DNA from: a virus
Virus record (IMG/VR): IMGVR_UViG_3300008886_000002
Location: 1 to 62,873 of that record
DNA: 62,873 nucleotides
Direction: 5' to 3' (one strand)
Shown one piece after another: positions 7,422 through 59,625 of the stretch. The position numbers were made by a program, and so were the translations under genes. The first letter of the stretch is position 1; each line of letters opens with the position of its first letter. A model generated the notes under the pieces. It saw nothing but the letters and a program-made list of their open reading frames with translations, had not been told where the DNA came from and did not search any database.

Positions 7422-7439
7422 CTGAAACAATAATTCTCG

Positions 7440-7468
7440 AAGGCCCTCACCAATGGTGGGGGCCTTTT
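7440..7468 (+). terminator. Rho-independent terminator (copy A of a repeated terminator-SD module)
   Basis: 12-bp stem aaggccctcacc/ggtgggggcctt with a 3-nt loop and a T-tract. Followed by gcatggaaggacg and GTG 7484. Confidence 0.7.
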
Positions 7469-7483
7469 GCATGGAAGGACGTC

Positions 7484-7873
7484 GTGACCGACAAACCCGT
7501 CCACCCCCTCGTCGCGAAGAGAATCGCCGCCCTCAAGGACGTCGAAGACGCCGTGTTCCAACTCGAGCACGACATGAAATACCCCGTCGACGCGCACGGG
7601 TCGGCGTTCGACCTCAACCCCATCCACGCCCGCTACCCCGACGTCCTCCCCGCCTTGGTTCACCACTTGGTGAAGGCGGGTTGGCGCCGCATCGAGGACA
7701 AACGGTTCATCAAGGCCCGCCCCGTGAAAGCGGCCGGGTTCTACGAGGACTTGGTGACGTGGGTGCCGATGGACGAACCCGACGAACCCATCGAAATCGC
7801 AGAACCTGCCCCTGTTTCCGATCAGTGGTCGGTCGTCCCGACGGTCACTGAAGTGTATGAGGAGCGTGAATGA
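7484..7873 (+). CDS. Hypothetical protein
   Basis: 129-aa ORF preceded by the ggaagga SD. ATGA overlap with the next gene. Confidence 0.7.
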   Translation: MTDKPVHPLVAKRIAALKDVEDAVFQLEHDMKYPVDAHGSAFDLNPIHARYPDVLPALVHHLVKAGWRRIEDKRFIKARPVKAAGFYEDLVTWVPMDEPDEPIEIAEPAPVSDQWSVVPTVTEVYEERE

Positions 7874-15171: not shown

Positions 15172-15819
15172 ATGCATGACGAACCTCAGAAAGAGACTTG
15201 GAAGCCAATTCCGGGCTTTGAAGGCAAGTACGAAGTCAGTGATCTTGGTCGCGTTAAGTCGTTGCCAAGGACCATCCAACGGGGCGGTCACAACTACAGA
15301 ATTCGCGGACAGATTCTGAAGCAAACTCCAGATAAGGCGGGACGCCTGCTTGTGGGCCTCTACCCGGGGTCAGTTAGGCGGGGAAAGCTGCATTTCGTGC
15401 ACCGATTGGTGCTGGAAGCTTTTGTTGGTCCTCGTCCTGAAGGCATGGTCTGCTGCCATCACAACGATGTCTCTACAGACAACCGCCTGTGCAACCTTCG
15501 TTGGGACACCATGTCTGCCAACAACTATGACAAGGTTCGCAACGGTGGCGACCACAACGCGAGCCGTACCCATTGCGATTCGGGCCATGAGTACACCCCC
15601 GACAACACTCAAGTGTTGCTCAAGGGCGGTCGCCAGTGCATTGAATGCCATCGGCGTTACGTCCGTGAATACATGCGTCGTAAACGAAGCGAGCCGAAGA
15701 ACGCCGGTATTTGCGGCCAGTGCGGCAAGCCGCGAGATTCCGCACAGTTCAAGTGCTGCAGTAGATGCCGCGAGTACGCACGTGCATACCGGGCTCGTCG
15801 TAACGGGCAGACCGCGTGA
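15172..15819 (+). CDS. HNH homing endonuclease (NUMOD4 + HNH_3 type)
   Basis: WKPIPGFEGKYEVSDLGRVKS (NUMOD4) and VHRLVLEAFVG...CCHHNDVSTDNRLCNLRWDT (HNH), with a Cys-rich tail. Confidence 0.9.
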   Translation: MHDEPQKETWKPIPGFEGKYEVSDLGRVKSLPRTIQRGGHNYRIRGQILKQTPDKAGRLLVGLYPGSVRRGKLHFVHRLVLEAFVGPRPEGMVCCHHNDVSTDNRLCNLRWDTMSANNYDKVRNGGDHNASRTHCDSGHEYTPDNTQVLLKGGRQCIECHRRYVREYMRRKRSEPKNAGICGQCGKPRDSAQFKCCSRCREYARAYRARRNGQTA

Positions 15820-16551: not shown

Positions 16552-17238
16552 GTGGCCAACCTGGTGTATTTCACGGTGACTGGAACGTTCCTCGCCGCGG
16601 TACGGGACTCGGTGTACGACGTCGACAACGACCCCGAACTCACCCCCATGACCGGTTCCGTAGTCCTTACCCCCCTCATCGATTCCGGGGACTCCCTGCC
16701 CGCGCCGACCCTCACGCCGCCCGCCAACCTGTGGCTCGTCCCCATCAAAGCGCAAATCCGAGCCGGGAAGATCACCGCCAACGGCGCCACCGGAGTGAAG
16801 CTGGTCGCCAACACCGCGGTCCTCGGCCTCGCCGGGAACCTGTACTACCGCGTCGACTACCCCGAAGGGCTCACCGCAGGCGGGAAGACCTACCAACCCG
16901 ACTCGTTCACCTTCCAAGCGCCCCTCACCGCCACCACCGTCGACCTCGTCGAAGTAACCCCCCTTCCCGGACATCCCGCCTTCGCCGAAGTCCTCCCCGT
17001 CGTCACCGTCGCCGGGCAAAAAGGCAACGTGCTCCTCACCGTCGACGACCTCGGAGACGCTCAACCCACCGGCAAGGACCTCACCCGTTCTGAAACACCC
17101 GTCGACGCCCGCACCGCCATCCACGCCCTCGCCGGAACCATCGTCGACCCCACCGGAACCGTCATCACCAACAAGGCAGCCCGCATCGTCCTGGACTCCA
17201 ACGGCGAAATCGACGACATCATCATGGAAGGCATCTGA
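16552..17238 (+). CDS. Minor tail protein; intact paralogue of the IS-disrupted gene at 49571
   Basis: N-terminus LVYFTVTGTF and C-terminal FTFQAPLTATTVDLVEVTPLPG align with 49571..49876 plus 51227..51355. Confidence 0.7.
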   Translation: MANLVYFTVTGTFLAAVRDSVYDVDNDPELTPMTGSVVLTPLIDSGDSLPAPTLTPPANLWLVPIKAQIRAGKITANGATGVKLVANTAVLGLAGNLYYRVDYPEGLTAGGKTYQPDSFTFQAPLTATTVDLVEVTPLPGHPAFAEVLPVVTVAGQKGNVLLTVDDLGDAQPTGKDLTRSETPVDARTAIHALAGTIVDPTGTVITNKAARIVLDSNGEIDDIIMEGI

Positions 17239-27784: not shown

Positions 27785-27949
27785 TGGTTCATCTTCTCCT
27801 CGGCTACCGACGCCGACTCCATGGTTGGCCCGTCGTCGTGGCTGTTTGACACTGTCAATGCTGCCTGACGTTTTCCCAGGTCGCATCGTGTCATTTCATG
27901 TCGTCAAAACCCTCCGAATGCGGTGTAATTGCAGGTCGCATTCATTTTC

Positions 27950-27979
27950 GGCCGGGTTCGATTCCCGGCAGCTCCACCA
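27950..27979 (+). other. attP core: 3' end of a tmRNA (or tRNA-Ala)-like gene
   Basis: ggccGGGTTCGATTCCCGGCAGCTCCACCA reads as T-arm plus 3' acceptor strand with U70, A73 and CCA. No matching 5' acceptor strand lies upstream, so it is a gene fragment and not a tRNA. Confidence 0.75.
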
Positions 27980-27992
27980 ATAGTAGCAGGTC

Positions 27993-28022
27993 AAGCCCCC
28001 AAACATGGGGGCTTTTCCTTTT
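27993..28022 (+). terminator. Rho-independent terminator following the tmRNA-like fragment
   Basis: aagccccc aaacat gggggctt followed by ttcctttt. It would terminate the reconstituted host gene after integration. Confidence 0.75.
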
Positions 28023-28065
28023 GTCAAACGCTTGTCAAAGCGGGTTTTGGGGTAGGGTCATTTTT

Positions 28066-28758
28066 GTGGCCCACCCGATCACCTTCTCTGACGTGCTGAA
28101 AGAGCCAGTTCAGGCCCGTTTCCGCAGTAACGTCCACCTCAGTGAATGGGGCTGCCTCGAGTGGCGTGGCGCTGCACCCGGCAGATACGGAAGCTGTCCG
28201 GTCAACGGCCGAAACGTCCCCGCCCACCGAGTGGCCTGGGTAATGCGACACGGTTGCGACATCCCCGACGATCTGGTCATCGATCACCTCTGCTGCAACA
28301 AGCGGTGCGTGAACGCCGACCACCTCGAGGCCGTCAGCGACGCTGAAAATGTCCGGCGGGTTCATCGTCCGCCGCGGGGGTGGAAGCCAGTGCCGGCGCC
28401 CATTCTGACGGCGATGGAGTATCGAGGTCGACGGTGGTGCGACGTGCAGTGGATCACCGCGCAGAACGGCAAAGTTGAGAAGCACATCAAAATGTTCGAC
28501 GATCCCGAACACGCAGCGGCTTTTGCGGCGCACCTGAGCAAGACCAAGCCGGGGTCTACCGTCGTCGAGGAATGTCCCCGCGATATCCGCGACCGGCTCC
28601 TTCGTGCCTACAACGACATCGGAGTCAGCGGCTGGTTACGAGAACCCCACCGCGATCTCGGCGGGGAGCGGCCGATTGACCTCATCCGCACGGGGCGTGT
28701 CGCCGAAGTACGTGCTGTTACCGAATGGCTGCTGTCGGTCAACCTCGGGGGTTCGTAG
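28066..28758 (+). CDS. HNH endonuclease fused to an AP2-like DNA-binding segment and an MbcA/ParS-type (DUF2384-like) C-terminal domain
   Basis: CLEWRG...AHRVAWV...VIDHLCCNKRCVNADHLE (HNH), YRGRRWCDVQWITAQNGKVEKHIKMFDDPEHAAAFAAH (AP2-like), and WLREPHRDLGGERPIDLIRTG. GTG 28066 chosen because the upstream part of the track ORF reads through attP and the terminator. Confidence 0.75.
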   Translation: MAHPITFSDVLKEPVQARFRSNVHLSEWGCLEWRGAAPGRYGSCPVNGRNVPAHRVAWVMRHGCDIPDDLVIDHLCCNKRCVNADHLEAVSDAENVRRVHRPPRGWKPVPAPILTAMEYRGRRWCDVQWITAQNGKVEKHIKMFDDPEHAAAFAAHLSKTKPGSTVVEECPRDIRDRLLRAYNDIGVSGWLREPHRDLGGERPIDLIRTGRVAEVRAVTEWLLSVNLGGS

Positions 28759-29876
28759 TGGCGTCGATACGAGCGAGGCAACGAGCGGACGGAACCACTG
28801 CCTACGCGGTGCTCTACAAGCTCGGAACAACCCAGACGGCGGCCACCTTCGACACGGAGGAGGCCGCCGTCGAGTTTCGTGACGCCGTCAACTCCATCGG
28901 CGCCGAACGCGCCATGCGCGGCTGGGGCATCGGCACCACCGCCCGCGCGCAACGCCCTAAAGGCCCGACGGTGGAGGAGTGGATACGTACCTACATCGAC
29001 TCCCGCACGGGCGTCACAAAGGCCACGCTGTTCGACTACAACGCCTACCTGAAGCACGACATCGCCCCTGAGCTGGGGAAGATTCCGTTGGTCGCCTTGA
29101 CCGCGGCGGACTGCCAGCAGTGGGTTCAGGTGATGGCGGCGAAGAAGCTCTCCGGGAAGGAGAGCACGTTGTCGGGGAAGACCCTCGCCAACCGGCATGG
29201 GTTTCTGTCTGCGGCGCTCAACGCCGCGGTGCGTGCGGAGATGATCCCGTCCAACCCGACCATCGGCACCCGTCTACCGCGCACCGAGAAGCAGGAGATG
29301 TGCTTCCTCACCCCCGACGAGTTCGACCTCCTGAAGCAGGGGTTCCAGGAACGGTGGTGGCCGTTCCTGTCGTTCATGGTCGTGGCCGGCACCCGGTTCG
29401 GTGAGACCACCGCCCTGAAGCCGTCGGACGTGAACAGGGCGGCGAACACCGTGTACGTCGGGCGGGCGTGGAAGCGCACCTACGACGCGAAGCGCTACGA
29501 GATTGGTGTCCCGAAGACCCGTCGCAGCATTCGGACGATCAGCGTTCCCCGCAAGGTGCTCGACCAATTGGACTATTCCCATGAGTGGTTGTTCGTGAAC
29601 ACCGCGAACAACCCGATTCGTGCGTCGGAGTGGCGGAACAACGTGTGGTACCCGTCGGTGGCGAAGGCGAAGGCTGCGGGTTTGACGAAGTCACCCCGGA
29701 TTCACGACCTGAGGCACACGGCGGCTTCGTGGATGGTTCAGCAGGGGAGGCCGCTGCCGGTGGTGCAGGCTCACCTCGGCCACGAATCGATCAACACCAC
29801 AATTTCGCTTTATACCCATTTGGACAGGGCGAACGCCGACGAAGCCGCCGAAGGGCTGGGGGAGTGGCTGCGCTAG
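28758..29876 (+). CDS. int: Tyrosine integrase
   Basis: TAGTG coupling at the start. HDLRHTAASWMV...AHLGHESINTTISLYTHL (R-H-R-Y catalytic region). Confidence 0.9.
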   Translation: MASIRARQRADGTTAYAVLYKLGTTQTAATFDTEEAAVEFRDAVNSIGAERAMRGWGIGTTARAQRPKGPTVEEWIRTYIDSRTGVTKATLFDYNAYLKHDIAPELGKIPLVALTAADCQQWVQVMAAKKLSGKESTLSGKTLANRHGFLSAALNAAVRAEMIPSNPTIGTRLPRTEKQEMCFLTPDEFDLLKQGFQERWWPFLSFMVVAGTRFGETTALKPSDVNRAANTVYVGRAWKRTYDAKRYEIGVPKTRRSIRTISVPRKVLDQLDYSHEWLFVNTANNPIRASEWRNNVWYPSVAKAKAAGLTKSPRIHDLRHTAASWMVQQGRPLPVVQAHLGHESINTTISLYTHLDRANADEAAEGLGEWLR

Positions 29877-30955: not shown

Positions 30956-31159
30956 GTGAGGAATGAAGATGGCCGTTGGGTGGGCTACAGGGTTGGCCGC
31001 TGCCTAGCATTAACGGCGAGCACCCTCCCGCAGGCGCCGTTTCTCTACCGCACCGAACCTCGCGGGCACAAGGGAAACCACGTCGCCGTGAACCTTCACG
31101 ACGGAACCGTGGAGAAGACGTGGCCGCAAGCGCCATGGGACTCTGGAGCAACTGGATGA
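30956..31159 (+). CDS. Hypothetical protein (67 aa)
   Basis: GTG 6 nt after the upstream stop. ATGA overlap with the next gene. Confidence 0.5.
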   Translation: MRNEDGRWVGYRVGRCLALTASTLPQAPFLYRTEPRGHKGNHVAVNLHDGTVEKTWPQAPWDSGATG

Positions 31160-31494
31160 CTACCAAAGTGGCGGCGTGCCAACACTGTCCACATGCCTCA
31201 CATGTCGGCATGTGCGGTAAGCGCGTTGAGGTCAATACGTTCTGCGGATGTTTCGGTCGCCCCCGGGGTGAGAGCGATTTGCGTCGCCCCACCGTTGAGG
31301 TTCAGCGCGCCGTGTCCCGCATCCACGAATGCCTTGCCGAGGTGTACCTGCCGGACGGTGTTCGGATGTGGCTCACAAGCCCGAACCGCAACCTTGGTGA
31401 GCGTATACCGGCGCTGATGATTAGGTCCGGTCGCCTGTCCGAGGTGTCTGCCGTGCTGGCTGAGGCCGAACGACTGTCGGGCGGTGCTTGGTGA
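31156..31494 (+). CDS. Cys/His-cluster protein with MbcA/ParS-type (DUF2384-like) C-terminal domain
   Basis: CQHCPHASHVGMCGK...FCGC, then MWLTSPNRNLGERIPALMIRSGRLSEVSAVLAEAERLSGG. Confidence 0.65.
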   Translation: MTTKVAACQHCPHASHVGMCGKRVEVNTFCGCFGRPRGESDLRRPTVEVQRAVSRIHECLAEVYLPDGVRMWLTSPNRNLGERIPALMIRSGRLSEVSAVLAEAERLSGGAW

Positions 31495-41840: not shown

Positions 41841-42043
41841 CCCGTACAGCACCCACCGATCCAACCAACCCTGATGATCCTGAAGTGAAGGTGGCGTTGA
41901 CGTACAGGTGCCGCATGAGCATGTGCGGGGCGCTGCCCGGGGAGTACTGCAAGGGCTTCGACGGGGGTCCGTTACCTACCGGTCGAATCACACACCACTT
42001 CCGGCTGGATAAAGCCGTCAAGGATGGGGAGGCGGGTAGGTGA
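41837..42043 (+). CDS. Hypothetical protein (68 aa)
   Basis: ATGA overlap upstream and GTGA downstream. Confidence 0.55.
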   Translation: MTRTAPTDPTNPDDPEVKVALTYRCRMSMCGALPGEYCKGFDGGPLPTGRITHHFRLDKAVKDGEAGR

Positions 42044-42399
42044 GCCGTATCCCAGACAAAGTGCGCAAAGCGTTGCACAAGCGAGCCGAAATCAACGACT
42101 TCCCGTGCTGCGAAATCTGTGGTTCCCCGTACGCCAACAACGCTCACCACCGTAGGGGGCAGGGGCAGGGCGGACCCAACGCCCTGTCCAATCTGATGCT
42201 TCTGTGCGGGTCGGGGACTACCGGATGCCACGGCTATGTGACCACCCACCCGGGGGCCGCTGTAAGGAACGGCTGGACCATCCAGGGCACCGAGGAGGAA
42301 CCGTGGCAGGTGGCGGTCTGGTACCGGCGTGAGCAGAAGGTGAATCTCTACGACGACGGGTCTTTGGTACCCGCTGATTGGGGAGGTGAAGCAGCGTGA
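42040..42399 (+). CDS. HNH endonuclease
   Basis: CCEICGSPYANNAHHRRG...NLMLLCGSGTTGCHG. Confidence 0.8.
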   Translation: MSRIPDKVRKALHKRAEINDFPCCEICGSPYANNAHHRRGQGQGGPNALSNLMLLCGSGTTGCHGYVTTHPGAAVRNGWTIQGTEEEPWQVAVWYRREQKVNLYDDGSLVPADWGGEAA

Positions 42400-42966: not shown

Positions 42967-43124
42967 GCGACGAACTGGACGCAATCTCGGCGATGGAGAT
43001 TGACATCGAAATCGCAGACGTCGGAGAGATCTTGCAACGACATGGGGTATCACCCACCGCTGAAATGGCTTTCGAGTTGTGGCACTGGATGGAGATGCTC
43101 AGACGCCGCAGAGGTGATGCCTGA
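42963..43124 (+). CDS. Hypothetical protein (53 aa)
   Basis: ATGA overlap upstream and TGATG downstream. Read directly. Confidence 0.5.
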   Translation: MSDELDAISAMEIDIEIADVGEILQRHGVSPTAEMAFELWHWMEMLRRRRGDA

Positions 43125-43861
43125 TGGCACGTACGCCCAACTTCCCTCTGAGTCGCTGGCGTGATCGGAATTTCACGAAGCTGAGCCGTCAAGAGCAGTG
43201 GATGTGCTTCTTGCTCATGTACGGCACTCACCACACCAACAATCTTGGCGTGATACCCGTGACTCCTACGCGGTGGTCGAACATGGTCGCCAATGTGCCA
43301 CCAGTGGAGTGTTTCGAACTGGTTCGCCGGCTTGGTTTGACCGATTGGGTGGTGCTGGACGAATCTATGGACGAGCTGTTCCTGCCCAGCTATATGCGGG
43401 ACTGTCATATTGGCAAGCAGCCAAACCTGTTGCGGAGTGCAATCGCTGACGTCGACAACGTTTGGTCACCCTCAATACGCCTGGCCATTGCCGACGAGTT
43501 CTCTCACATAGACCGCAAGGATGCTCAATCAGCGGCCCATGCCATCCGCGCTGGCACCAAGTTGGCGGTGGGCAGTAGGCGAACCTCACGTCCATCCGTG
43601 GCCTCTGCACTGCGAACGTCTGTCTACCAACGCGATAACTGGAAGTGCTCCTACTGCGACCTAGCGTTTGAACCGGCACCCATTGGCCGTGCGCCAGAGG
43701 ACGAAATCCTCGGCATCTGGCTTGAACTGGACCACATTAGACCCTATTCGCTGGGCGGCGAAGACACCTTCGACAACTTTCGGTCTGCGTGCTCGACATG
43801 CAACCGCCGACGCGGAGTGGACGATGCCGACCTCTGGGCGCAGAGGATTGAGGCGCACTGA
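43124..43861 (+). CDS. Protein with C-terminal HNH nuclease domain
   Basis: VYQRDNWKCSYCDL...LELDHIRPYSLGGEDTFDNFRSACSTCNRRRG. Confidence 0.8.
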   Translation: MARTPNFPLSRWRDRNFTKLSRQEQWMCFLLMYGTHHTNNLGVIPVTPTRWSNMVANVPPVECFELVRRLGLTDWVVLDESMDELFLPSYMRDCHIGKQPNLLRSAIADVDNVWSPSIRLAIADEFSHIDRKDAQSAAHAIRAGTKLAVGSRRTSRPSVASALRTSVYQRDNWKCSYCDLAFEPAPIGRAPEDEILGIWLELDHIRPYSLGGEDTFDNFRSACSTCNRRRGVDDADLWAQRIEAH

Positions 43862-46932: not shown

Positions 46933-47393
46933 CCGACCATCAGGGGCGCACCTTGCCGCCATTCCCCACAGACGACTTCACGCTCACCCAGCTCGACCAC
47001 GCCCTAGACGCGAGCATCGACTTTGACGACGACGGTAAACGCATTGTCGTGGGAGCAGACTTCACGTTCTCCCAATTCCTCGACTTCATGTCCGGGTACG
47101 ACCCCGAGCGCGCCACCCTGATCGGGCACACCGACGTCATCCCCGGCACTGACGTACCCCACGACCATTCGATACCCATCTACGAGTCGTGGGACGAGCA
47201 CTACACCGAGCATTCCGTCATACGGGCGTTGCTGTCTGAGGTTGTGTCTTTGCGGTCGACCTTGGCACGGGTACGGGAACTGCACCGCGAGCATGAGCAT
47301 CTCGCGATGTGTGTCGACTGTGAGGGCTCTTGGCCGTGCCCAACCATCGCTGTTTTGGGTTCTGTTGCACCTACTGAGGATGGAGCAGCATGA
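46929..47393 (+). CDS. Hypothetical protein (154 aa)
   Basis: ATGA overlap. C-terminal CVDCEGSWPCPT motif is shared with 44986..45396. Confidence 0.65.
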   Translation: MTDHQGRTLPPFPTDDFTLTQLDHALDASIDFDDDGKRIVVGADFTFSQFLDFMSGYDPERATLIGHTDVIPGTDVPHDHSIPIYESWDEHYTEHSVIRALLSEVVSLRSTLARVRELHREHEHLAMCVDCEGSWPCPTIAVLGSVAPTEDGAA

Positions 47394-47914
47394 GCGAGGT
47401 GCCGATTGAGCAAGAAGTTTGGCTGCCTGTCCCGGGTTGGGAATTGGCCTACGAGGTGAGTTCCTACGGTCGGATCAGATCACTAGACAGAGCAGAATCT
47501 ATAGGAATGGCGGTTAGGTCAAGACGGGGGTGCATCCTGAAAACGCGTTGCGGCAACAGCGGATACCAACAGGTTCACCTTCACAAGATGGGCAAACGGA
47601 AAGCAGCATCTATCCACCGTTTGGTATGCGAAGCGTTCCACGGACCTTGCCCTGCAGGTATGGAAGCTCGCCACCTCAACGATGTGAAGCATGACAACAG
47701 GGCTGAAAACTTAGCGTGGGGTACAAAGTCGCAGAACTCGCACGATGCTCGAAGTAATAACCATCACCCACAGGCGCGTAAGACCCACTGCAAGTGGGGT
47801 CATGAGTTCACCGAGCAGAACACGAAAATTGGTCGCAACGGGTGGCGGTGGTGCCGACAATGCCACCGAGACGATGGCGCCCGACGGTACAAACTGTCAG
47901 GAAGTGCTGCATGA
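47390..47914 (+). CDS. HNH homing endonuclease (NUMOD4 + HNH_3 type)
   Basis: WLPVPGWELAYEVSSYGRIRS, IHRLVCEAFHG...ARHLNDVKHDNRAENL and HCKWGH...CRQC. Confidence 0.85.
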   Translation: MSEVPIEQEVWLPVPGWELAYEVSSYGRIRSLDRAESIGMAVRSRRGCILKTRCGNSGYQQVHLHKMGKRKAASIHRLVCEAFHGPCPAGMEARHLNDVKHDNRAENLAWGTKSQNSHDARSNNHHPQARKTHCKWGHEFTEQNTKIGRNGWRWCRQCHRDDGARRYKLSGSAA

Positions 47915-48540
47915 CCGAGGTACAGGTCGACGACGGGAACCTCCCGGCAGCGTTGAGAGCGTTGGACGACGCCCTGCATGTGCTGATGAACCCTCAGCAG
48001 CAGGTCATCAACGACGAACTGATGATCGGCCCGTCGCTTTACATGCAGTTGTGGGACGCGGTTTCGGGGGAGTCCACTAACGGTGGTGGCGCCGGCTCAG
48101 GTTCAAAGTCCCGACCCCCAGTGTGGATCGACGCCCTGGATTTGTGTCATGAGATCGACCAGGCGGTGGAGTGCTGGCAGCCCATGCACACCGGAACCCC
48201 ACCCACTGTGGGTCGGTTGAGGCATCTACGGGCGCGGGCGTGGAGGCCGCAAGATGTCCGGCAGCTCGAGCAGATCACCACAGCGGTAGCAGCGTGGGCG
48301 GCGTCCATCGAAGAGTTGATGAACCCCCCCGCGAAGTGGACGCTCCCGTACCCGTGTCCCCGCTGCCAAACCACCCACGTCTACCGACGCGACTCCACCG
48401 GCGAACTGGTTCGCTCCTACGCCCTTCAAATCTCAGCGGACGGCTGCACCTGCGCCCGATGCAGAGAACACTGGCCCCCAGGGAAACTGCTGTTCCTCGG
48501 ACGCCTGTTGGACACCGTCCCCGACAACGTAGGGGAGTGA
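47911..48540 (+). CDS. Hypothetical protein (209 aa)
   Basis: ATGA overlap. C-terminal CPRC...CARC. Confidence 0.65.
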   Translation: MTEVQVDDGNLPAALRALDDALHVLMNPQQQVINDELMIGPSLYMQLWDAVSGESTNGGGAGSGSKSRPPVWIDALDLCHEIDQAVECWQPMHTGTPPTVGRLRHLRARAWRPQDVRQLEQITTAVAAWAASIEELMNPPAKWTLPYPCPRCQTTHVYRRDSTGELVRSYALQISADGCTCARCREHWPPGKLLFLGRLLDTVPDNVGE

Positions 48541-48788
48541 TTGTGGACCCGATAACGACGGCCATCATTCTGTCCTGGGTTGAAGTCAAGTCCGTGTGCG
48601 AGAGCCTCGTCAAGCACCCAGACAACGACGACGAGAAGGCGGTAGCAGAGCACATCCTCATGGTCATGGCGCGGCATATGCAAGAGGCTCAACCCGGCTC
48701 GCGAACACCAGCACGCGCCGTCCGCCAGGAGACCTGCTTGAAATGCGATGGACCGTTCCAGCCAGACTCTTGCTTCTGCGGTCGCTAG
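48537..48788 (+). CDS. Hypothetical protein (83 aa)
   Basis: GTGA overlap. Last gene of the early operon. Confidence 0.6.
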   Translation: MIVDPITTAIILSWVEVKSVCESLVKHPDNDDEKAVAEHILMVMARHMQEAQPGSRTPARAVRQETCLKCDGPFQPDSCFCGR

Positions 48789-48881
48789 CACAGGGTTCCG
48801 ACACGCCTGCCAACATCTCTTGCCATAACGGCAAATTGCTGTACCGTTATTAACGCGAGGCATACGTGTCTCCAAAACCTG

Positions 48882-48914
48882 CCCGCCGTCCGCATGTGAA
48901 TGGCGGGTTTTCTC
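48882..48914 (+). terminator. Rho-independent terminator at the end of the early operon
   Basis: cccgcc N14 ggcggg followed by ttttctc, in a lower-GC 156-nt spacer. Confidence 0.6.
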
Positions 48915-48944
48915 ATTCCTGCCCCATGTTGGAAGGGGTTTCCG

Positions 48945-49136
48945 GTGACCACCATTGCTCCCGCTGACCCCGTCACCCAAATACGCGACGCTGTGGGTTT
49001 CGCACGGGCTGCCCGCCATCACCAGGATTGCCGCTGCGGCCTGTACCGCAAGGACGGTGCTGGGTTCTGCACCGACCGCGAAGCTTTGTGGCAACGAGCA
49101 ATCGACGTGCTGCTGACCACCATTACGCACCGCTGA
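48945..49136 (+). CDS. Hypothetical protein (63 aa)
   Basis: GTG start after the ggaagggg SD, internal to track ORF 48900. Confidence 0.5.
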   Translation: MTTIAPADPVTQIRDAVGFARAARHHQDCRCGLYRKDGAGFCTDREALWQRAIDVLLTTITHR

Positions 49137-49270
49137 TGGACTGTGTCGCCATTCAAGCCCGCATCAAGGGGCCGTGGTACCAACGTCCCGAGACAACACA
49201 ATTAGCTGACAGCCGCACCAATAGCGGTGGATGCACGCTTTGACCAACACTTGCGTTAGCTGGAGGAACC

Positions 49271-49570
49271 ATGAGCGACGAACGCCTCACCACGAACGTC
49301 TGGGTACCCGCCGGTCCCGTCGCCAAGGGAGACATCCTCGCCCAAGCTCTCCTCGACCTCCGGGACAAGATTCCCGCAGCCACCCTCCCCAGCGCGGACA
49401 TCGTGGACTCCAAGGAATCCACGAAAGACAAGATCAAAGGCCGCTCGTACACCGTTGCAGTCACCTACCGGCCGTTGACGAAAGATGAAGGCACCGTTTC
49501 GGTGGAGGACATCGTCGCCGACCTGCAACCCGAACCATTCGACCCGGCAGAGCACGACGACGAAAAGTAA
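49271..49570 (+). CDS. Hypothetical protein (99 aa)
   Basis: ggagga SD. Track ORF. Confidence 0.65.
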   Translation: MSDERLTTNVWVPAGPVAKGDILAQALLDLRDKIPAATLPSADIVDSKESTKDKIKGRSYTVAVTYRPLTKDEGTVSVEDIVADLQPEPFDPAEHDDEK

Positions 49571-49879
49571 ATGACCCTCCAGTTCTTCACCGTCACCGGG
49601 AACCTCCGGGCCATCGTCGTCGATTACGTCGACGCGGGCGTAACCCCCGACATCTCCAACGTCACCTGCACCATCGACTTCATCCCCCGCGTCCCCCGCG
49701 GCCAAGTCGTCTGGGCATCCGGACTCACACCACCCCAAGGCATCCTCATCGCACCCATCAGGGCACGATTCGACGGTGACGGCGCACTCCACACCATCGT
49801 CGGCGACCTTGGCGTTCAACTCCTCGCCAACACCCCTGACATCGACATGGACCAACTGTTGTATGACGTGGTCTTCTGA
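49571..49879 (+). pseudogene. 5' part of a tail-protein paralogue truncated by IS insertion
   Basis: The ORF ends at a TGA that is the first 3 nt of the IS left inverted repeat. It continues in frame at 51227 once the IS and one TTC copy are removed. Confidence 0.85.
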
Positions 49880-49930
49880 AACGCCCTGGAAATCCCGGAG
49901 GCTCCTGACCTTGGAAACGAGGATGCAGGT

Positions 49931-50275
49931 ATGCCGAAGGAACAGTCGCCGGGGAAACCCACGGCGCGTCGATACAGCCCCGAGGAGAAGGCCGCTGCGG
50001 TACGGATGGTCCGCGCCCTGCGTGCCGAGCTGGGCACCGAGCAGGGCACGGTGTCGCGGGTAGCCCGTCAGCTCGGCTACGGGGTCGAGTCGGTGCGCTC
50101 CTGGGTGCGCCAGGCCGACATCGACGACGGGTATGCGCCAGGGGTATCCACCGCGGAGTCTCAGCGGGTCAAAGAACTCGAGCAAGAGATACGAGAACTC
50201 AAGCGCGCCAATGAGATTCTGAAGCGAGCAGCCAGTTTCTTCGGGGCGGAGCTCGACCGCCAACACAAGAGATAG
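49931..50275 (+). CDS. IS3-family transposase OrfA (HTH plus leucine zipper)
   Basis: RRYSPEEKAAAVRMV...VARQLGYGVESVRSWVRQ...ELEQEIRELKRANEILKRA. Confidence 0.9.
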   Translation: MPKEQSPGKPTARRYSPEEKAAAVRMVRALRAELGTEQGTVSRVARQLGYGVESVRSWVRQADIDDGYAPGVSTAESQRVKELEQEIRELKRANEILKRAASFFGAELDRQHKR

Positions 50276-50346
50276 TCACCTTCATCGACGACAACCGCGA
50301 GGAGTTCGGGGTCGAGCCCATCATCACCGTCCTGCACACCGCAGGG

Positions 50347-51192
50347 GTGACGGTGGCCCCGAGCACCTACTACGCGGCCAAGTCGCGCGCTCCGTCGCAG
50401 CGGGCCTGCCGTGACGCTGTCCTGGGTCCGGCCCTGGTGGCGCTCTGGGAGGACAACTACCGGGTCTACGGGGTTCGCAAGCTGTGGAAGACGGCACGTC
50501 GGGCCGGCCACGACGTCGGCCGCGACCAGGTGGCCCGGCTGATGCGGGCGGCCGGGATCGAAGGCGCACGGCGCGGCAAACGGGTGCGAACCACCAAACC
50601 CGACCACAGCGCCGAACGGCACCCGGATTTGGTCAATCGGAAGTTCACCGCGAGCGCCCCGAACCAATTGTGGGTTACGGATCTGACGTTCGTGCCGACC
50701 TGGGCCGGGGTGGCGTATGTCTGCTTCATCGTCGACGCCTACTCCCGGATGATCGTTGGCTGGCGCGTCGCATCCCACATGCGGACCACCATGGTCCTTG
50801 ATGCGTTGGAGATGGCGCGCTGGTCACGCGGAAACACGTTGCCGGGCTTGACATGTCACTCGGATGCCGGATCGCAATTCACATCTATCCGCTACGGCGA
50901 ACGACTCGCCGAGATCGGCGCAGCCCCGTCGATCGGTTCGATCGGGGACAGCTATGATAACGCCCTCGCGGAGACGGTGAACGGCTACTACAAGGCCGAG
51001 CTGATCTACGGGCCGGCCCGCACCGGCCCGTGGAAGACCGTCGAAGACGTCGAGTTGGCGACCCTGGGATGGGTGTACTGGCACAACACCGCCCGCCTTC
51101 ACGGCTACCTCAGCGACGTCCCTCCGACCGAGTTCGAAGCCGCATTCTACGATGCACAGCGGACCGACCAAACCCTGGTCGAAATCCAATAG
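50347..51192 (+). CDS. IS3-family transposase OrfB (DDE catalytic core; made as an OrfAB -1 frameshift fusion)
   Basis: WVTDLTF, HSDAGSQFTS and DNALAETVNGYYKAE (D, D, E plus K). The -1 frame is open from 50215 and overlaps the orfA end at 50275. Confidence 0.9.
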   Translation: MTVAPSTYYAAKSRAPSQRACRDAVLGPALVALWEDNYRVYGVRKLWKTARRAGHDVGRDQVARLMRAAGIEGARRGKRVRTTKPDHSAERHPDLVNRKFTASAPNQLWVTDLTFVPTWAGVAYVCFIVDAYSRMIVGWRVASHMRTTMVLDALEMARWSRGNTLPGLTCHSDAGSQFTSIRYGERLAEIGAAPSIGSIGDSYDNALAETVNGYYKAELIYGPARTGPWKTVEDVELATLGWVYWHNTARLHGYLSDVPPTEFEAAFYDAQRTDQTLVEIQ

Positions 51193-51223
51193 CTCGAGCC
51201 TCCGACAGAACCAGGGCGTTTCA

Positions 51224-51355
51224 TTCAGCAACCTGAACTTCGCCAAGGCACCAGACGACGCACTCATCTCACCCTTCGCCTTCGAAGCCCCCAAGGCCAC
51301 CACGACCGTCGACCTGTCACAACTCGAACGCATACCTGCCCTACCCGGACTCTGA
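51224..51355 (+). pseudogene. 3' part of the IS-disrupted tail-protein paralogue (TTC duplication plus 42 codons)
   Basis: SNLNFAKAPDDALISPFAFEAPKATTTVDLSQLERIPALPGL aligns with FTFQAPLTATTVDLVEVTPLPG of 16552..17238. Confidence 0.8.
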
Positions 51356-51356
51356 G

Positions 51357-51596
51357 CTACAGGTACCGCACACGCTTCTTGTTGGACAGGGCAATGAACA
51401 GCCACACCCACGCCCAACCGCCGCACAACCAGAACGTCAACAACGTCAATATCAAATGCAGCACATGGTTCGGGCCCTCGACCACCGTCACAGGATCAGG
51501 CCCCATGGGCGCAGTGTGGTCCGTCCACTGCGTGCCGTCGAACCACCGCTGCACCGGCACACCCGACGGATCTGGATACCACCCCGGTTGACTCAT
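51357..51596 (-). CDS. DUF2510-type membrane protein
   Basis: GWYPDPSG...QRWFDGTQWTDH followed by the TM region LHLILTLLTFWLCGGWAWVWLFIAL. A minus-strand gene in plus-strand surroundings. Confidence 0.7.
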   Translation of the reverse strand: MSQPGWYPDPSGVPVQRWFDGTQWTDHTAPMGPDPVTVVEGPNHVLHLILTLLTFWLCGGWAWVWLFIALSNKKRVRYL

Positions 51597-51708
51597 AACC
51601 CCGCAGCCTAGCTAACGCGTCGGACCTAGACGGTAAGATTTCAGACATAAGGCCCCGGCGAGGACGGCAATCCTCCCGGGGAATGGCCAACCTGGATGAG
51701 AGGCTGAC

Positions 51709-52407
51709 ATGGCTCAGCGTACAGTCATTTGCGAATGGTGTGGACGTGAGTTCACCGCAGTCAGAGCGCGATTCTGCTCCCGCAACTGCCACAACCACCA
51801 CCAGCGCGGCCCCATACCAGAGCGCTCATGCCTCTGGTGCAACGGGCCCATGGATGGCAAGCGGCGCGGCGCGCTGTACTGCACACAGCAACACAAAAAG
51901 AACGCATCTGGGGCAAGGTTCCGCGACCGGAACCCCGGCTACTACAAGCCCTACGGTCAAAGTGAGCGCATGCGCAAATTGCTTGACGCCAACCGCGAAA
52001 ACCGCCGCGCATACGCCAGGCAATACCGTCTCGATCACCTTGAACAGACAACAGCCCGATCAAAGCAATGGCGCGAGGCGAACCGCACGTACTTCCAAGT
52101 ACACCAGAGAAACCGAGTGGCATGGAAACACAACAACCCCGGCAGTGTCGGCGTCAGCGAGCGGGACTGGACGCGACTGTGCCGGCGCTACGACCACCGA
52201 TGCGCTTACTGCGGACAGAAACCTGAAGCTGTCTTGCAGATGGACCACGTGGTTCCCTTGAGCAAGGGCGGACGGCATGCCATCGGCAACGTCCTTCCCG
52301 CATGCAGGGCATGCAACCTAACTAAGAATGCAGCTCTCCTCATCCGCTGGAAGTACCGCAAGATGTGCGGCCTGTACGACGACATGCCCGGAGGTATCAG
52401 TGCCTGA
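51709..52407 (+). CDS. HNH endonuclease (paralogue of 59005..59625)
   Basis: CAYCGQKPEAVLQMDHVVPLSKGGRHAIGNVLPACRACNLTKN. The basic Arg-rich N-terminal half resembles 59005. Confidence 0.85.
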   Translation: MAQRTVICEWCGREFTAVRARFCSRNCHNHHQRGPIPERSCLWCNGPMDGKRRGALYCTQQHKKNASGARFRDRNPGYYKPYGQSERMRKLLDANRENRRAYARQYRLDHLEQTTARSKQWREANRTYFQVHQRNRVAWKHNNPGSVGVSERDWTRLCRRYDHRCAYCGQKPEAVLQMDHVVPLSKGGRHAIGNVLPACRACNLTKNAALLIRWKYRKMCGLYDDMPGGISA

Positions 52408-52423
52408 CACTCACCCTGGCGGG

Positions 52424-52657
52424 ATGCCAATCCAGTTTAAGAAGTATTGGCTCGAAGGGGCTGGGGCTCAAGCTATTCGCTGGTCAACCCCAGGTGACTT
52501 TGCCAGATGCTGCACTGCGATCAACGCCAAGATCGAAGAGCATGGCGGCAAGCCGCTACCGGATCGCGAGATACGTGGTTTGTGCGCAACACTTCACAAG
52601 GAAGCCACCGGCGCCACACCCGGTCACGCACCAGGCGAACAAGCAGCCAAGCACTGA
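52424..52657 (+). CDS. Hypothetical protein (77 aa; alternative GTG start at 52400)
   Basis: In-frame part of track ORF 52328. Lies between two HNH genes. Confidence 0.55.
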   Translation: MPIQFKKYWLEGAGAQAIRWSTPGDFARCCTAINAKIEEHGGKPLPDREIRGLCATLHKEATGATPGHAPGEQAAKH

Positions 52658-52660
52658 CCT

Positions 52661-52945
52661 GTGAACAACGCCGGTCGCAACACCACCCTACGAAACCGCT
52701 ACCGCCGCACCATCGCCAAAGACAAACCCGAATGCCACATCTGCAAAGGCGAACGCGGCCCCATCGACTACACCGCCGGCCACCTACACCCACTCTCCTT
52801 CACCATCGACCACATCCAACCCCTCAACAAAGGTGGGCAGGACGTGCTCGACAACCTTGCTGCAGCGCATCGCATGTGCAACCGTGACAAGTCCGACCAG
52901 TTCGACACCGGCGGACCGCTGTACGTCACCACCCGGGTCTGGTAG
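52661..52945 (+). CDS. HNH endonuclease (terminase-associated type)
   Basis: CHICKGERGPID...TIDHIQPLNKGGQDVLDNLAAAHRMCNRDK, just upstream of the terminase genes. Confidence 0.85.
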   Translation: MNNAGRNTTLRNRYRRTIAKDKPECHICKGERGPIDYTAGHLHPLSFTIDHIQPLNKGGQDVLDNLAAAHRMCNRDKSDQFDTGGPLYVTTRVW

Positions 52946-53099
52946 CCGCGCCCATTACGCCACTGAACTGCGCTAATGGTGACGGAAGCGCGGGCGGGTG
53001 GGGGACTCCCCCTTTGATCTTGATCCGGCGCACCTCGTCGGCATAGGCAGTGCGCGCGTTCCCGTTTTTTCCGTTTCTACCAGCCGGAGGTGACATCCG

Positions 53100-53393
53100 A
53101 TGAGTTCACGATCCCACGTGCGGGTGGTGGCCCCCGATGAGGTTGCGGCGCCGAAGAAGGTGCTCACGCTCGGTGAGGCCATCGCTGGTGGGGACTATCT
53201 GCAGATTTTGCTGGCGCAGCGGCGTGACATCGCTGATGCGTTGCCGGATGAGAAGGGGCCCGCCAAGGCGGCGTTGCATCGGCAGTTGTCGTTGATCTCG
53301 AAGGAGATCGAGACGCTGGAGATGGCTGGCCTGGGTGAGGGCTCGGTGGTGGCGAATACGGATGACGACGGCTGGGACCAGTCGGCTATCTGA
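53100..53393 (+). CDS. Terminase small subunit (putative)
   Basis: ggagg SD. 97 aa, overlapping the terL start. Position after the HNH gene. Confidence 0.6.
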   Translation: MSSRSHVRVVAPDEVAAPKKVLTLGEAIAGGDYLQILLAQRRDIADALPDEKGPAKAALHRQLSLISKEIETLEMAGLGEGSVVANTDDDGWDQSAI

Positions 53394-54789
53394 CGTTGCG
53401 CGGCATGTAGTTCAGCCCAGCGGGATTGTCGGCACGGGGTGGCCGGCGGTGCGGGATACGTGTGCTCGGCTTGGATGGCATTTCGATCCGTGGCAGGACG
53501 GCGCTGGAAGACTCATCCTTGCCAAACGCGCTGACGGCTTGTATGCGGCGGATCAGATTTTGATGTCGATCAGCCGGCAGGTCGGTAAGACGTACTTGTT
53601 CGGTGCCATTGCCTTCGCGCTGTGTCTGTTGAACCCGAACACGACGGTGATTTGGACGGCGCACCGCGGTAAGACGGCGTCGGAGACGTTCAACTCCATG
53701 AACGGCTTGGCTTCTCAAGCAAAAGTCGCTGCGCACATCCGGCAAGTGCTGCGTGGGCAGCGGGACCAAGAAATCAACTTCAACAACGGGTCTCGCATCT
53801 TGTTTGGGGCTCGAGAGCACGGGTTTGGTCGTGGTTTCGCCGGTGTGGACGTGTTGATGTTCGACGAGGCGCAGATCCTCGGCGAGGCGGCGATGGAAGA
53901 CATGGTCGCCTCTCAGAACGTGGCTCCGAATCCGTTGACGATTCTCACCGGAACCCCACCGCGGCCCAAGGATGACGGTGAAGTGTTCACGCTTGCTCGT
54001 CAGGAAGCGTTGGACGGGGAAACCGAAGGCACGCTGTACATCGAGCTGTCGGCGGATCGGGATTGCGACCCGATGGACCGCTATCAGTGGCGGAAGGCCA
54101 ACCCGAGTTTCCCGAACCGCACACCGGAACGGGCGATGCTCCGCATGAAGAAGAACCTTTCTGAGGACTCGTTCCTGCGAGAAGCATTGGGCGTTTGGGA
54201 TGAAGCTTCCCGACACCAACCGGTGATCAAGAAGTCCTTGTGGGATACCTTGGCCGACGTTGGCCCCGCTGATGGTGTGAAACCGAATGCGTTGGGTGTG
54301 GACATGTCCCACGACAGGCTGATTTCGGTGGGCGCCTGTTGGGTTGAAGGAGAGTCGGCGCACCTTGAAGAAGTGTGGTCCGACTCTGACGCCAACACGA
54401 CGCTGAACTGGATCGTGGAACGCACGGGACGTCGGATGCCGGTGTTCATCGACGGGATGGGGCCGGCGTCGTCTCTGATTGCGGATTTGCGTGCTCGAGG
54501 TGTGCGGGTCACGCAAACGACTGCGGGGGATATGTCGAAGGCGTGCGGCATGTTCGAGGACCGCGCCAAAGCGAAAACGCTGACGCACGACGACAACGAA
54601 CGCCTCAACAGCGCCCTTGAAGGGGCGCGGAAGCGTCTGATCCGCGATGCGGGTGGGTGGGGTTGGGATCGCCGTGATCCCACCGCAGCCATTTACCCGC
54701 TGGTCGCAGTGACGTTGGCGCTTCTTGGTGCGGTGTCCAACGGGCCGAAGAGAACCAAGCCGAATGGTCGAGTCGCGACTGTCATGTAG
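53362..54789 (+). CDS. Terminase large subunit
   Basis: Walker A-like SRQVGKTYLFG and Walker B VDVLMFDEAQ. ATG 53362 is the last start before the terS stop. Confidence 0.85.
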   Translation: MTTAGTSRLSDVARHVVQPSGIVGTGWPAVRDTCARLGWHFDPWQDGAGRLILAKRADGLYAADQILMSISRQVGKTYLFGAIAFALCLLNPNTTVIWTAHRGKTASETFNSMNGLASQAKVAAHIRQVLRGQRDQEINFNNGSRILFGAREHGFGRGFAGVDVLMFDEAQILGEAAMEDMVASQNVAPNPLTILTGTPPRPKDDGEVFTLARQEALDGETEGTLYIELSADRDCDPMDRYQWRKANPSFPNRTPERAMLRMKKNLSEDSFLREALGVWDEASRHQPVIKKSLWDTLADVGPADGVKPNALGVDMSHDRLISVGACWVEGESAHLEEVWSDSDANTTLNWIVERTGRRMPVFIDGMGPASSLIADLRARGVRVTQTTAGDMSKACGMFEDRAKAKTLTHDDNERLNSALEGARKRLIRDAGGWGWDRRDPTAAIYPLVAVTLALLGAVSNGPKRTKPNGRVATVM

Positions 54790-54803
54790 CCGGAAGGGGA
54801 ACG

Positions 54804-56246
54804 TTGACAATCCAAGTCACCCTCCCGGAGATCAAGGATGACGAACAGCGCCTACTGAACGGGCTGTTGCAGCAGTTGGAGTTCCGGCAGACGCGCAACC
54901 ATCTGCGGGACTGCTTCTACGACGGACGTCTGGCAGTCAATCAGGTCGGCACGATCATCCCGCCGCAGTACTACCACCTGCCGATCGTGTTGGGGTGGTC
55001 GGCGAAAGCCGTTGATACGTTGGCGAACCGCTGCAATCTGGACAGCTTCACCTGGGCCGACGGAGACCTTTCATCGCTGGGTTTTCATGAGGTGTTCGAC
55101 GACAATTACCTTGACGTGGAGATTGATTCGGCAACGACGCAATCGTTGCTGCATGGGCCGGCGTTCCTGATCAACACCGTTGGGGATACGACGGTGGGTG
55201 AGCCTGCGGGATCGGTTCACGTGAAGTCAGCGACCAACGCCACCGGGACGTGGGATGCGCGCGGGCGGCGCATGTCAAACCTGTTGTCGATCACGGGCCG
55301 CGATCTGTCGGGTTCTGTGTCCAGTCTCGCCTTGTATCTCGATGGTGTGACCATCATTGGGGAGAAGGACTCCAGCGGCTGGTCTACGGAACGTACGGAG
55401 CATCCGTGGGGTGTTCCGGTGGAACCGATGGTGTACCGGTACCGCACGGATCGGCCGTTCGGTCAGTCTCGGATTTCACGGGCGGTGATGTCTGCGCATG
55501 AGGCCGCTTTGCGGACGGTGATCCGTATGGAAGGCCACGCGGACACGTATTCCTTCCCTGAGATGTGGATGCTCGGCGCGGACGAGTCGATCTTCAAGAA
55601 TCCTGACGGGACGCAGAAGGCTTCGTGGCAGGTGATGTTGGGCCGCGTCAAGGGCATCCCCGACGACGAGGAAGCCACCAACCCGAGGGTTGACGTGAAG
55701 CAGTTCCAAGCGTCGTCGCCGCAACCGCACATCGACATGTTGAAGCAGCAAGCTCAACTCTTCGCTGGGGTTACGGACATTCCCATTTCCGACCTTGGTG
55801 TGTCAGACATGTCCAATCCAACGTCGTCGGATTCGTACATCGCTTCGCGAGAAAACATCATCGCCGAAGCCGAAAACACCATCAAGGGCTACAAGCGGGC
55901 GTTGAAGCGTTCGATGACTCGGGCGTTGGCGATGCAAAACAACATCAAAGACATTCCTGCGGAGTGGTCGACGATTTCGCCGAAGTGGCGCCCCCCGATC
56001 TACTTGTCGCAGGCACAGCAGGCCGATGCGGGTTTGAAGATGTTGACGGCGTGCCCGTGGCTGGCGGAAACCGATGTGGGCCTTGAAATCTTGGGTTTGG
56101 ATGAGCAGCAGATTGCTCGAGCTTTGTCTCAGAAGGTGAAGGCGCAGGGCCAGTTGACGTTGCAGGCGTTGGCGCAGCAGGGCCAGAACCTCCAGGCAAC
56201 GCAACGGGTTGAGCAGGCCACCAGTGACAGCACCAGCACCAACTGA
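54804..56246 (+). CDS. Portal protein
   Basis: 480-aa ORF after terL, with ggaagggga SD plus TTG start. Confidence 0.8.
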   Translation: MTIQVTLPEIKDDEQRLLNGLLQQLEFRQTRNHLRDCFYDGRLAVNQVGTIIPPQYYHLPIVLGWSAKAVDTLANRCNLDSFTWADGDLSSLGFHEVFDDNYLDVEIDSATTQSLLHGPAFLINTVGDTTVGEPAGSVHVKSATNATGTWDARGRRMSNLLSITGRDLSGSVSSLALYLDGVTIIGEKDSSGWSTERTEHPWGVPVEPMVYRYRTDRPFGQSRISRAVMSAHEAALRTVIRMEGHADTYSFPEMWMLGADESIFKNPDGTQKASWQVMLGRVKGIPDDEEATNPRVDVKQFQASSPQPHIDMLKQQAQLFAGVTDIPISDLGVSDMSNPTSSDSYIASRENIIAEAENTIKGYKRALKRSMTRALAMQNNIKDIPAEWSTISPKWRPPIYLSQAQQADAGLKMLTACPWLAETDVGLEILGLDEQQIARALSQKVKAQGQLTLQALAQQGQNLQATQRVEQATSDSTSTN

Positions 56247-59004: not shown

Positions 59005-59625
59005 ATGTCAGAGCCTAAACCATGTCGCAAGTGCGGAGCAGAACGAAGCTGGTCAGAGACCAGCAAACGTTGGCGCTGTATGGCCTGCAACTATCAGCAC
59101 CAGTTGAAACGCAAAGCGCGGCTGTCGCCCGAAAAGATTGAAGCCGAACGCATTCGCGCTAACGAACTGCGCAATGCGCGGAGGGCGCTCTGGTCTCCGG
59201 AGCAGCGCGGGGCCGCTAATGCGCAGTCTGCGGCGTGGCGTGAGGCCAATCGCGAGCGCCACCGACGGGTCATCCATGAGTGGTATCAGCGGACTGCTGA
59301 TGTCCGTAGGGCCAAGAAGTGCGAAGAGTACCGCGCGAATCCGGAGCGTTGGTATGCGGCGAATCTGTTGCGGAAGGCAAGACTTGCCAACGCGGTCTGT
59401 CAGCATGGACCAAAATGCGTGACGGACGAGTTCTTGGCGGACCTGTATCAGCAGGACTGTTTGTACTGCGGCGCACGGTGCCAGCACGCGGATCACTTCT
59501 ACCCGATCGCTCGCGGCGGCATCCACTGCGTGGAGAACATCGTTCCTGCGTGTCAGCCATGCAACAACAGCAAGTGCGCGCGTGATCCGTATGAGTTTTG
59601 GGCTAGTCGTGAGAGGACGGGGTGA
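59005..59625 (+). CDS. HNH endonuclease (paralogue of 51709..52407)
   Basis: gggag SD plus ATG. Contains CLYCGARCQHADHFYPIARGGIHCVENIVPACQPCNNSK. Confidence 0.85.
   Translation: MSEPKPCRKCGAERSWSETSKRWRCMACNYQHQLKRKARLSPEKIEAERIRANELRNARRALWSPEQRGAANAQSAAWREANRERHRRVIHEWYQRTADVRRAKKCEEYRANPERWYAANLLRKARLANAVCQHGPKCVTDEFLADLYQQDCLYCGARCQHADHFYPIARGGIHCVENIVPACQPCNNSKCARDPYEFWASRERTG

Follow-up and report, generated by a model that had tools for sequence, protein, structure and literature searches.

Phages tolerate insertion sequence (IS) elements poorly (PMC3429520), and among actinobacteriophages IS3-like elements have been described in Sleepyhead, UncleRicky, Blueberry, Whitney and Cucurbita (PMC13313380). 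In these temperate, plaque-forming phages of Rhodococcus (Sleepyhead), Mycobacterium (UncleRicky, F1) and Gordonia (Blueberry, Whitney and Cucurbita), the elements are of the IS3 type with two open reading frames (ORFs), a T_TTC motif and a 3-bp target duplication. IS3-family elements also reside in temperate phage genomes of other bacteria, namely IS629/IS1203 in the Shiga toxin (Stx) prophages of Escherichia coli O157 and ISBt3 in Burkholderia phage phiE125. Here we describe an element of this kind in a virus sequence of 62,873 nucleotides, positions 1 to 62,873 of the IMG/VR record IMGVR_UViG_3300008886_000002, referred to as the window. A 1,347-bp IS occupies 49877..51223 and divides a 144-codon gene into two fragments. 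Our reading, to which we assign a probability of roughly 0.93, is that an active IS3-family element recently split this conserved gene of a temperate, cos-type mycobacteriophage.

The window element resembles the actinobacteriophage cases in all three traits named above. It differs from them in that the insertion lies within a gene, a twin with an empty site exists and identical copies are documented. The UncleRicky element belongs to a different IS3 lineage (69% match over 33% of the element), and the inverted repeats of the Sleepyhead element are unrelated to those of the window IS. The IS629/IS1203 and ISBt3 cases differ in their proteobacterial hosts and IS3 subgroups, and many of the Stx cases are prophage records and not virion DNA. 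In a collection of 50,697 GenBank phage records, an IS3-type OrfB was detected in 218 (0.43%), mostly as IS629 in Stx phages; other records were ISBt3 in phiE125 and five Gordonia phages. This count is consistent with an initial annotation made from the sequence alone (the first-pass annotation), which had called IS elements rare in phage genomes, although they are not unprecedented in actinobacteriophages (PMC13313380).

The closest described elements are bacterial. The C/D part of the Mycobacterium avium 'IS1601' (AF143772) has the length of the window IS (1,347 bp), the same TGAA(A/T)CGCCC...GGGCG(A/T)TTCA ends and the same arrangement of orfA and a −1 orfB. Copies in Mycobacterium sp. 050272, M. 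parascrofulaceum and the M. paragordonae plasmid NZ_CP025547 share length, ends and layout and are flanked by 3-4-bp duplications. However, these relatives are only 82-89% identical to the window IS at the nucleotide level (82% for the C/D part of 'IS1601'), whereas the exact 100% variant was encountered only in metagenomic and Logan contigs and, over its first 446 bp, in a Mycolicibacterium conceptionense assembly. As a side observation, the GenBank 'IS1601' feature (AF143772.2 1409..5670) spans 4.26 kb with ORFs B-D, and only its C/D portion corresponds to the 1,347-bp IS3 element; 'IS1601' as annotated looks composite or nested.

The insertion sequence, its empty site and its sister copies

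The element and its immediate borders comprise the following features.

49877..51223, + strand: complete IS3-family insertion sequence, 1,347 bp, with TG...CA ends, about 30 related insertions and identical copies elsewhere
49877..49904, + strand: left terminal inverted repeat, 28 bp, with TGA as its first three bases
51196..51223, − strand: right terminal inverted repeat, 28 bp
49874..49876: left copy of the target-site duplication, TTC, 3 bp; a single TTC in the empty-site allele
51224..51226: right copy of the target-site duplication, TTC
49931..50275, + strand: orfA, 114 residues, helix-turn-helix (HTH) N-terminal part of the transposase (Pfam HTH_Tnp_1)
50215..51192, + strand: orfB frame, −1 relative to orfA and open from 50215, with HTH_21, rve and rve_3
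50230..50361, + strand: apical loop-internal loop (ALIL) pseudoknot, programmed −1 frameshift signal (Rfam RF01497)

The element starts with TGAAACGCCCTGG and ends with CCAGGGCGTTTCA. Its inverted repeats are complementary at 23 of 28 positions, the first 13 perfectly. As expected for the IS3 family, it has TG/CA termini with imperfect inverted repeats, a size within about 1.2-1.55 kb and a target duplication in the 3-4-bp range, TTC on both sides here and 3-4 bp in the relatives. The ends are retained in 18 aligned relatives. When a single genome was scanned for each bacterial species, 80 loci with OrfB 74-91% identical were obtained, the closest nearly all from Mycobacteriaceae. At about 30 of the loci flanking sequence was available, and the nucleotide homology to the window element spans exactly base 1 to 1,347. 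These are independent related insertions in mycobacteria and other actinobacteria (74-89% identical), and roughly half of them carry a clean 3-4-bp duplication. Since some 30 independent insertions share the same two end bases and an empty-site allele is on record, the boundaries at 49877 and 51223 are not a matter of chance.

The empty-site allele was found in Logan contig SRR25993483_4362 (L117) by exact look-up of neighboring proteins, with the 99-residue upstream product and the 232-residue HNH protein downstream as queries. L117 matches window 48712..49876 and 51224..54906, corresponding to 4,845 bp of flanks, at 100% identity and contains a single TTC. Removal of the IS and one TTC from the window in silico gave a 435-nt ORF of 144 codons, as the first-pass annotation had predicted, and this reconstruction agrees with the intact ORF of L117 at every position (0/435 nt differences). 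A second SRR25993483 contig is identical to window 574..9341 over 8,768 bp. A homologue search with the restored protein had missed the identical intact allele and returned relatives of at most 81% identity, so its negative outcome was misleading. Exact-pattern scans for the empty-site junction in viral_contigs, and for the left flank in viral_contigs and metagenome_contigs, gave no match. The insertion is very recent: the IS is undiverged from its sister copies, the gene fragments are undamaged and an IS-free twin phage exists. Precise excision is rare for IS3 elements.

The coding region of the IS is intact, with no internal stops in the orfA and orfB frames. orfA (frame 2) and orfB (frame 1) overlap in 50215..50275, and gene callers place the start of orfB at 50347 or 50353. 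The overlap holds a T_TTC tetramer (50236..50239) followed by the ALIL pseudoknot, in keeping with the 0/−1 arrangement of two-ORF IS3 elements. The pseudoknot was detected with the Rfam covariance model at 77 bits (gathering score 50, E 5e-19). Minimum-free-energy folding of the frameshift region was not significant (z = −0.76); this nested-pair method is blind to the pseudoknot that the covariance model detects. T_TTC is a shift-motif type of IS3 elements (PMC4066793, PMC13313380). As cited in PMC5009743, Mazauric et al. (2008) found that the ALIL pseudoknot stimulates −1 frameshifting in IS3-family elements, and its distribution in mycobacteria has been described (PMC9569102). The frameshift region is kept in relatives (AGTTTCTTCGGGGCGGAGCTCGACCGCC), whose fusion proteins, as annotated by the Prokaryotic Genome Annotation Pipeline (PGAP), change frame in the T_TTC/pseudoknot region.

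Joining 49931..50239 to 50239..51192 gives a conceptual OrfAB of 420 residues, which is 92% identical to the NCBI-annotated 420-residue fusions of Mycobacterium sp. 050272 and M. parascrofulaceum. It covers positions 1-369 of 369 of the NCBIfam model NF033516 (transpos_IS3) and scores 361.3 bits, the cut-off of the model being 160. The catalytic core consists of D251, D312 and E348, a DD(35)E arrangement, and K355 follows seven residues past the glutamate, where the IS3 family has K or R. OrfB is 54.5% identical to that of ISBt3 and 49% to that of IS629. With intact ends, orfA and a −1 orfB, T_TTC, ALIL and DD(35)E, the IS looks transposition-competent. The first-pass annotation had described an IS3-family element with inverted repeats, TG/CA termini, a TTC duplication, a −1 orfA/orfB arrangement and a DDE core at 49877..51223; every one of these coordinates held, and the family assignment is borne out by the NF033516 and ALIL scores.

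Exact-protein look-ups placed copies identical at 1,347 of 1,347 positions at no fewer than eight further sites in other samples, from assemblies of Logan, ENA and JGI, and three of the identical copies carry 3-bp duplications of their own (atg, atc and acc). The absence of any divergence across copies indicates that the IS is a young clone currently spreading in mycobacteria, in agreement with the earlier claim of a recent insertion. The first 446 bp of the IS are identical at two contig ends of GCA_001954125.1, where the flanking protein is identical to Mycolicibacterium conceptionense proteins; the host is presumably a Mycolicibacterium of the fortuitum/conceptionense type. A plasmid search for the donor gave 86% as the best mycobacterial plasmid match, and tblastx of the flanks of the other IS copies against the window gave noise only. 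Several identical copies (L099/L103 and L100/L101/L104/L108) adjoin D5_N/DUF5906 primase-helicase or Prim-Pol genes of other mobile elements. The IS seems to circulate among mobile elements as well as chromosomes.

The interrupted gene and the defined ends of the phage DNA

The split gene and its paralogue are located as follows.

49571..49876, + strand: 5' fragment, codons 1-102 of the split 144-codon gene (phrog_11690 family)
49571..49879, + strand: truncated ORF, 102 residues, with the in-frame TGA stop supplied by IS bases 1-3
51227..51355, + strand: 3' fragment, codons 103-144 and stop
16552..17238, + strand: paralogue, 228-residue tail-region protein, homologous to the split gene in its N-terminal 142 residues

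The restored protein is 33% identical to residues 4-142 of the 16552..17238 product (pairwise E 1e-14). Both match the PHROG family phrog_11690, 'tail protein', the restored ORF with E 2e-29 (residues 2-142) and the paralogue with E 3.5e-27 (residues 1-142). The designations 'tail protein' and 'virion protein' (32HC) are database labels for the gene family. A hidden Markov model of the family found these two copies and no third across the window. The domain of about 140 residues also matches the N-terminal region of tail-protein PHROG families with profiles of 716 and 1,057 positions, which suggests that the shared N-terminal domain may be an attachment module. The view of the first-pass annotation that the IS splits a paralogue of a tail gene thus stands, with the qualification that the duplication is old and not recent. 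Its further point, that the IS end supplies the stop codon, is true but trivial, because every member of this IS starts with TGA and one insertion phase in three in this orientation stops immediately. A 67-residue ORF (51152..51355, + strand) starts at an ATG inside the IS, crosses the right inverted repeat and enters the 3' fragment in frame; it was called as a gene by Logan's caller and is probably incidental.

Intact 144-residue homologues with 66-81% identity occur in syntenic metagenomic phage contigs and align without a gap at the junction VVF|SNLNF. The neighbors of these homologues match the window, with a 98-residue gene upstream and HNH genes, terminase and portal following. In isolated phages, right-end homologues are MalagasyRose gp83 (next to an HNH gene), Nergal gp80, Gaia gp168 and Bipper gp135, and in M. 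abscessus prophages the homologue sits directly before the terminase. These family members are similar to the window gene in size (about 140-150 residues, 35-46% identity) and in place, at the right end before HNH genes, cos and terminase, but unlike the window copy they are intact. Compared with the 80% orthologue, the ratio of nonsynonymous to synonymous substitution rates (dN/dS) was 0.23 for the gene, 0.20 for its 5' part and 0.29 for its 3' part, and both fragments are free of frameshifts or stops. Judged from these comparisons, the split gene is a conserved family member under purifying selection and anciently diverged, and not a recent redundant duplicate. The right arm of the related metagenomic phages at 80% (L003 5502..8305, L004-L006) also contains genes for Ro60 (TROVE and vWA_Ro60) and an RtcB RNA ligase, with no counterpart at that position in the window.

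The ends of the window overlap by 55 bp, so that the assembly closes into a circle of 62,818 bp, in our reading the complete phage genome. Among the encoded proteins are a portal, a capsid protein, a lysin and a tape measure protein with a transglycosylase motif, and the large terminase shares 60-64% identity with its counterparts in Milly-type phages and M. abscessus prophages. A megablast search with 48000..53000 and the IS against the 50,697 phage records returned only the M. avium IS1601 record, a bacterial locus, and no close phage relative was present among those records. Two further features are of importance for the life cycle.

28725..29876, + strand: tyrosine integrase, marking the phage as temperate
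53034..53044: inferred cos overhang CTCGTCGGCA(T), missing between the adapter-abutted ends in run ERR3150492

Two Logan contigs of run ERR3150492 together cover the whole circle, with a 30-nt overlap at window 26..55. The 53-kb contig crosses the IS, ends at window 53033 and continues into the adapter AGATCGGAAGAGC, and the 9.85-kb contig starts with the adapter CCTACACGACGCTCTTCCGATCT (...CTCTTCCGATCT) followed by window 53044/45. The 10-11 nt between 53033 and 53044/45 are absent from both ends, as expected for a cos-type phage. A third assembly, an ENA metagenome scaffold (L122), also begins at 53045. AGATCGGAAGAGC and ...CTCTTCCGATCT are Illumina TruSeq adapter sequences. Adapters become joined to a genome in assembly only if one physical end is common to many fragments, and loss of a 3' cohesive overhang is expected from end repair. 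From the adapter-abutted ends and the missing 10-11 nt it follows that the IS-bearing DNA in ERR3150492 was cos-cut linear DNA. These ends indicate packaging, not infectivity. The overhang presumably resembles the 11-nt 3' extension of Cluster K mycobacteriophages. Within the inferred cos region (window 53000..53045), the overhang is preceded by a GC hairpin and a T-run, GGGGGACTCCCCC TTTGATCTTG, at 53000..53022. No literature match was obtained for the run and assembly accessions.

The inferred cos site follows the IS at a distance of 1.8 kb and the large terminase at 2.1 kb, which puts the element just upstream of the packaging module, as had been noted from the sequence. Cleavage at cos still takes place in the IS-bearing genome; it is thus not blocked by the insertion and does not require the gene. 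The first-pass annotation had called the gene a dispensable duplicate. Dispensability is indicated for cos cutting and packaging only, whereas the conservation of the gene (dN/dS 0.23) and the ancient divergence of the two copies temper the remainder of that description. In UncleRicky, the IS3-type element (MH001448.1 55322..56583) is likewise at the right end, less than 2 kb from the genome end and between glycosyltransferase genes. The right genome end may be a permissive zone for insertions.

Course of the insertion and competing explanations

In the favored reading, an active IS3-family element, now spreading in mycobacteria, transposed into codon 102/103 of the conserved late-region gene and duplicated TTC. 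The target is a free-standing copy of the N-terminal domain of the 16552..17238 product; in the virion genome it is located at the right end, with the HNH genes, cos and the terminase following. The insertion cuts the protein to 102 residues, with TGA, the first codon of the IS, as stop. We infer that the hop occurred in a lysogen and that the virions are infectious. A more far-reaching version, in which the IS-bearing phage is fully infectious and carries the IS between hosts in its virions, from where the element could hop out of the prophage into a new chromosome, is possible but doubtful.

Short-read assemblers mis-join at repeats and the IS is multi-copy in many samples, so that the assembler could in principle have worked an IS abundant in co-assembled host DNA into the phage contig. 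At five of the 100%-identical copies no matching duplication is present, as would be expected of some chimeric joins. A chimera in the window would yield neither a 3-bp duplication nor flanks that rejoin to the ORF of the IS-free allele without a single difference, and Logan (k=31), a second assembler, crosses both junctions in the 53-kb contig, which implies a single copy of the IS in that sample. An old, fixed insertion in which the split gene is the decaying pseudogene of a redundant duplicate is conceivable in view of the paralogue at 16552..17238. However, the paralogues are only 33% identical, the 144-residue form holds its length and position in many phages, and both fragments are undamaged with low dN/dS values. 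In addition, identity is 100% both between the 4.8-kb flanks and the IS-free allele and between the IS and its other copies. The twin L117 excludes both an assembly chimera and an old insertion for practical purposes; we regard the artefact as almost inconceivable and the old insertion as very improbable.

The remaining alternatives accept the insertion and concern its timing or its consequences. The hop could have taken place during lytic or replicative growth in an IS-bearing cell, which would be the same event at another time. Only the non-integrated form was seen, as the circular assembly and the cos-cut ends, and the analysis turned up neither an attL/attR junction nor an IS-bearing lysogen contig. 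Against this timing stands the encoded tyrosine integrase, by which the prophage-phase hop suggested in the first-pass annotation is plausible. In general, a prophage also experiences host IS activity over a far longer time than a lytic cycle, which lasts minutes to hours. A lytic hop is unlikely, though well within the range of what could have happened. It is also imaginable that the knock-out was selected, with loss of the domain or outward transcription from the IS altering tail composition, host range or late-gene expression. It is the IS-bearing genome that was encountered as cos-cut DNA, the domain is common to the N-termini of the longer tail-protein families with the 716- and 1,057-residue profiles, so that a short copy could compete for a docking site, and the 67-residue ORF reads from the IS into the 3' fragment. 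However, there is no sign of a sweep, recurrence or phenotype, and the family is under purifying selection. No outward promoter-like site was found; the sole match in 48800..53400 is on the minus strand within the IS, and shuffled sequence also gives one. A neutral or mildly harmful recent hit accounts for all observations, and selection is improbable.

Several points weigh against a recent hop of an active IS into a packaged and viable phage as we read it. The adapter-abutted ends show cos cutting, which is not the same as infectivity. The window and both ERR3150492 contigs may share data, since their breaks coincide at window 26..55, and they were not counted as independent. The evidence is at the level of assembled contigs. 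The missing duplications at five identical copies also belong here; they may result from assembly across repeats or from recombination between copies. No identical full-length IS was found in a named isolate genome, the best of 185,579 species representatives being 89% identical at the nucleotide level. The AlphaFold2 model of the 144-residue protein, based on a 20-sequence alignment, had a predicted local distance difference test score (pLDDT) of 57, a low confidence, and the protein had no PDB match (Foldseek best E 2.3; none in a profile search of PDB sequences).

If the more far-reaching version is true, the locus would be a concrete example of IS elements being disseminated by phages among mycobacteria. 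The IS-bearing and IS-free phages form a natural isogenic pair, which doubles as a knock-out of the conserved tail-like gene at the right end and offers a system for asking whether active IS elements travel between mycobacterial hosts with temperate phages. Few such events are caught so fresh, and here a cos-cut IS-bearing genome, an IS-free twin and identical IS copies are on record together. No new mechanism is involved, as the element, the frameshift signal and the type of event are all well known, and the value lies in the completeness of the evidence.

Further features of the phage genome

Free-standing HNH or NUMOD4-HNH endonuclease genes are unusually numerous in the window. At least eight are present, two of them directly before cos.

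15172..15819: HNH/NUMOD4-HNH gene
27898..28758: HNH/NUMOD4-HNH gene
42040..42399: HNH/NUMOD4-HNH gene
43124..43861: HNH/NUMOD4-HNH gene
47390..47914: HNH/NUMOD4-HNH gene
51709..52407: HNH/NUMOD4-HNH gene
about 52661..52945: HNH/NUMOD4-HNH gene
about 59005..59625: HNH/NUMOD4-HNH gene

In the 761-residue minor tail protein (4756..7041, + strand), the Pfam domains follow in the order Sipho_Gp37, Intein_splicing, Sipho_Gp37, which points to an intein in a tail protein. A GT87-family glycosyltransferase (13458..14669, − strand) is encoded on the opposite strand amid the tail-gene region. The integrase is flanked by two proteins with Xre_MbcA_ParS_C antitoxin-type domains (27898..28758 and 30976..31494), one of which is fused to HNH_3. 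The pair may be a toxin-antitoxin or defense module in the immunity region.

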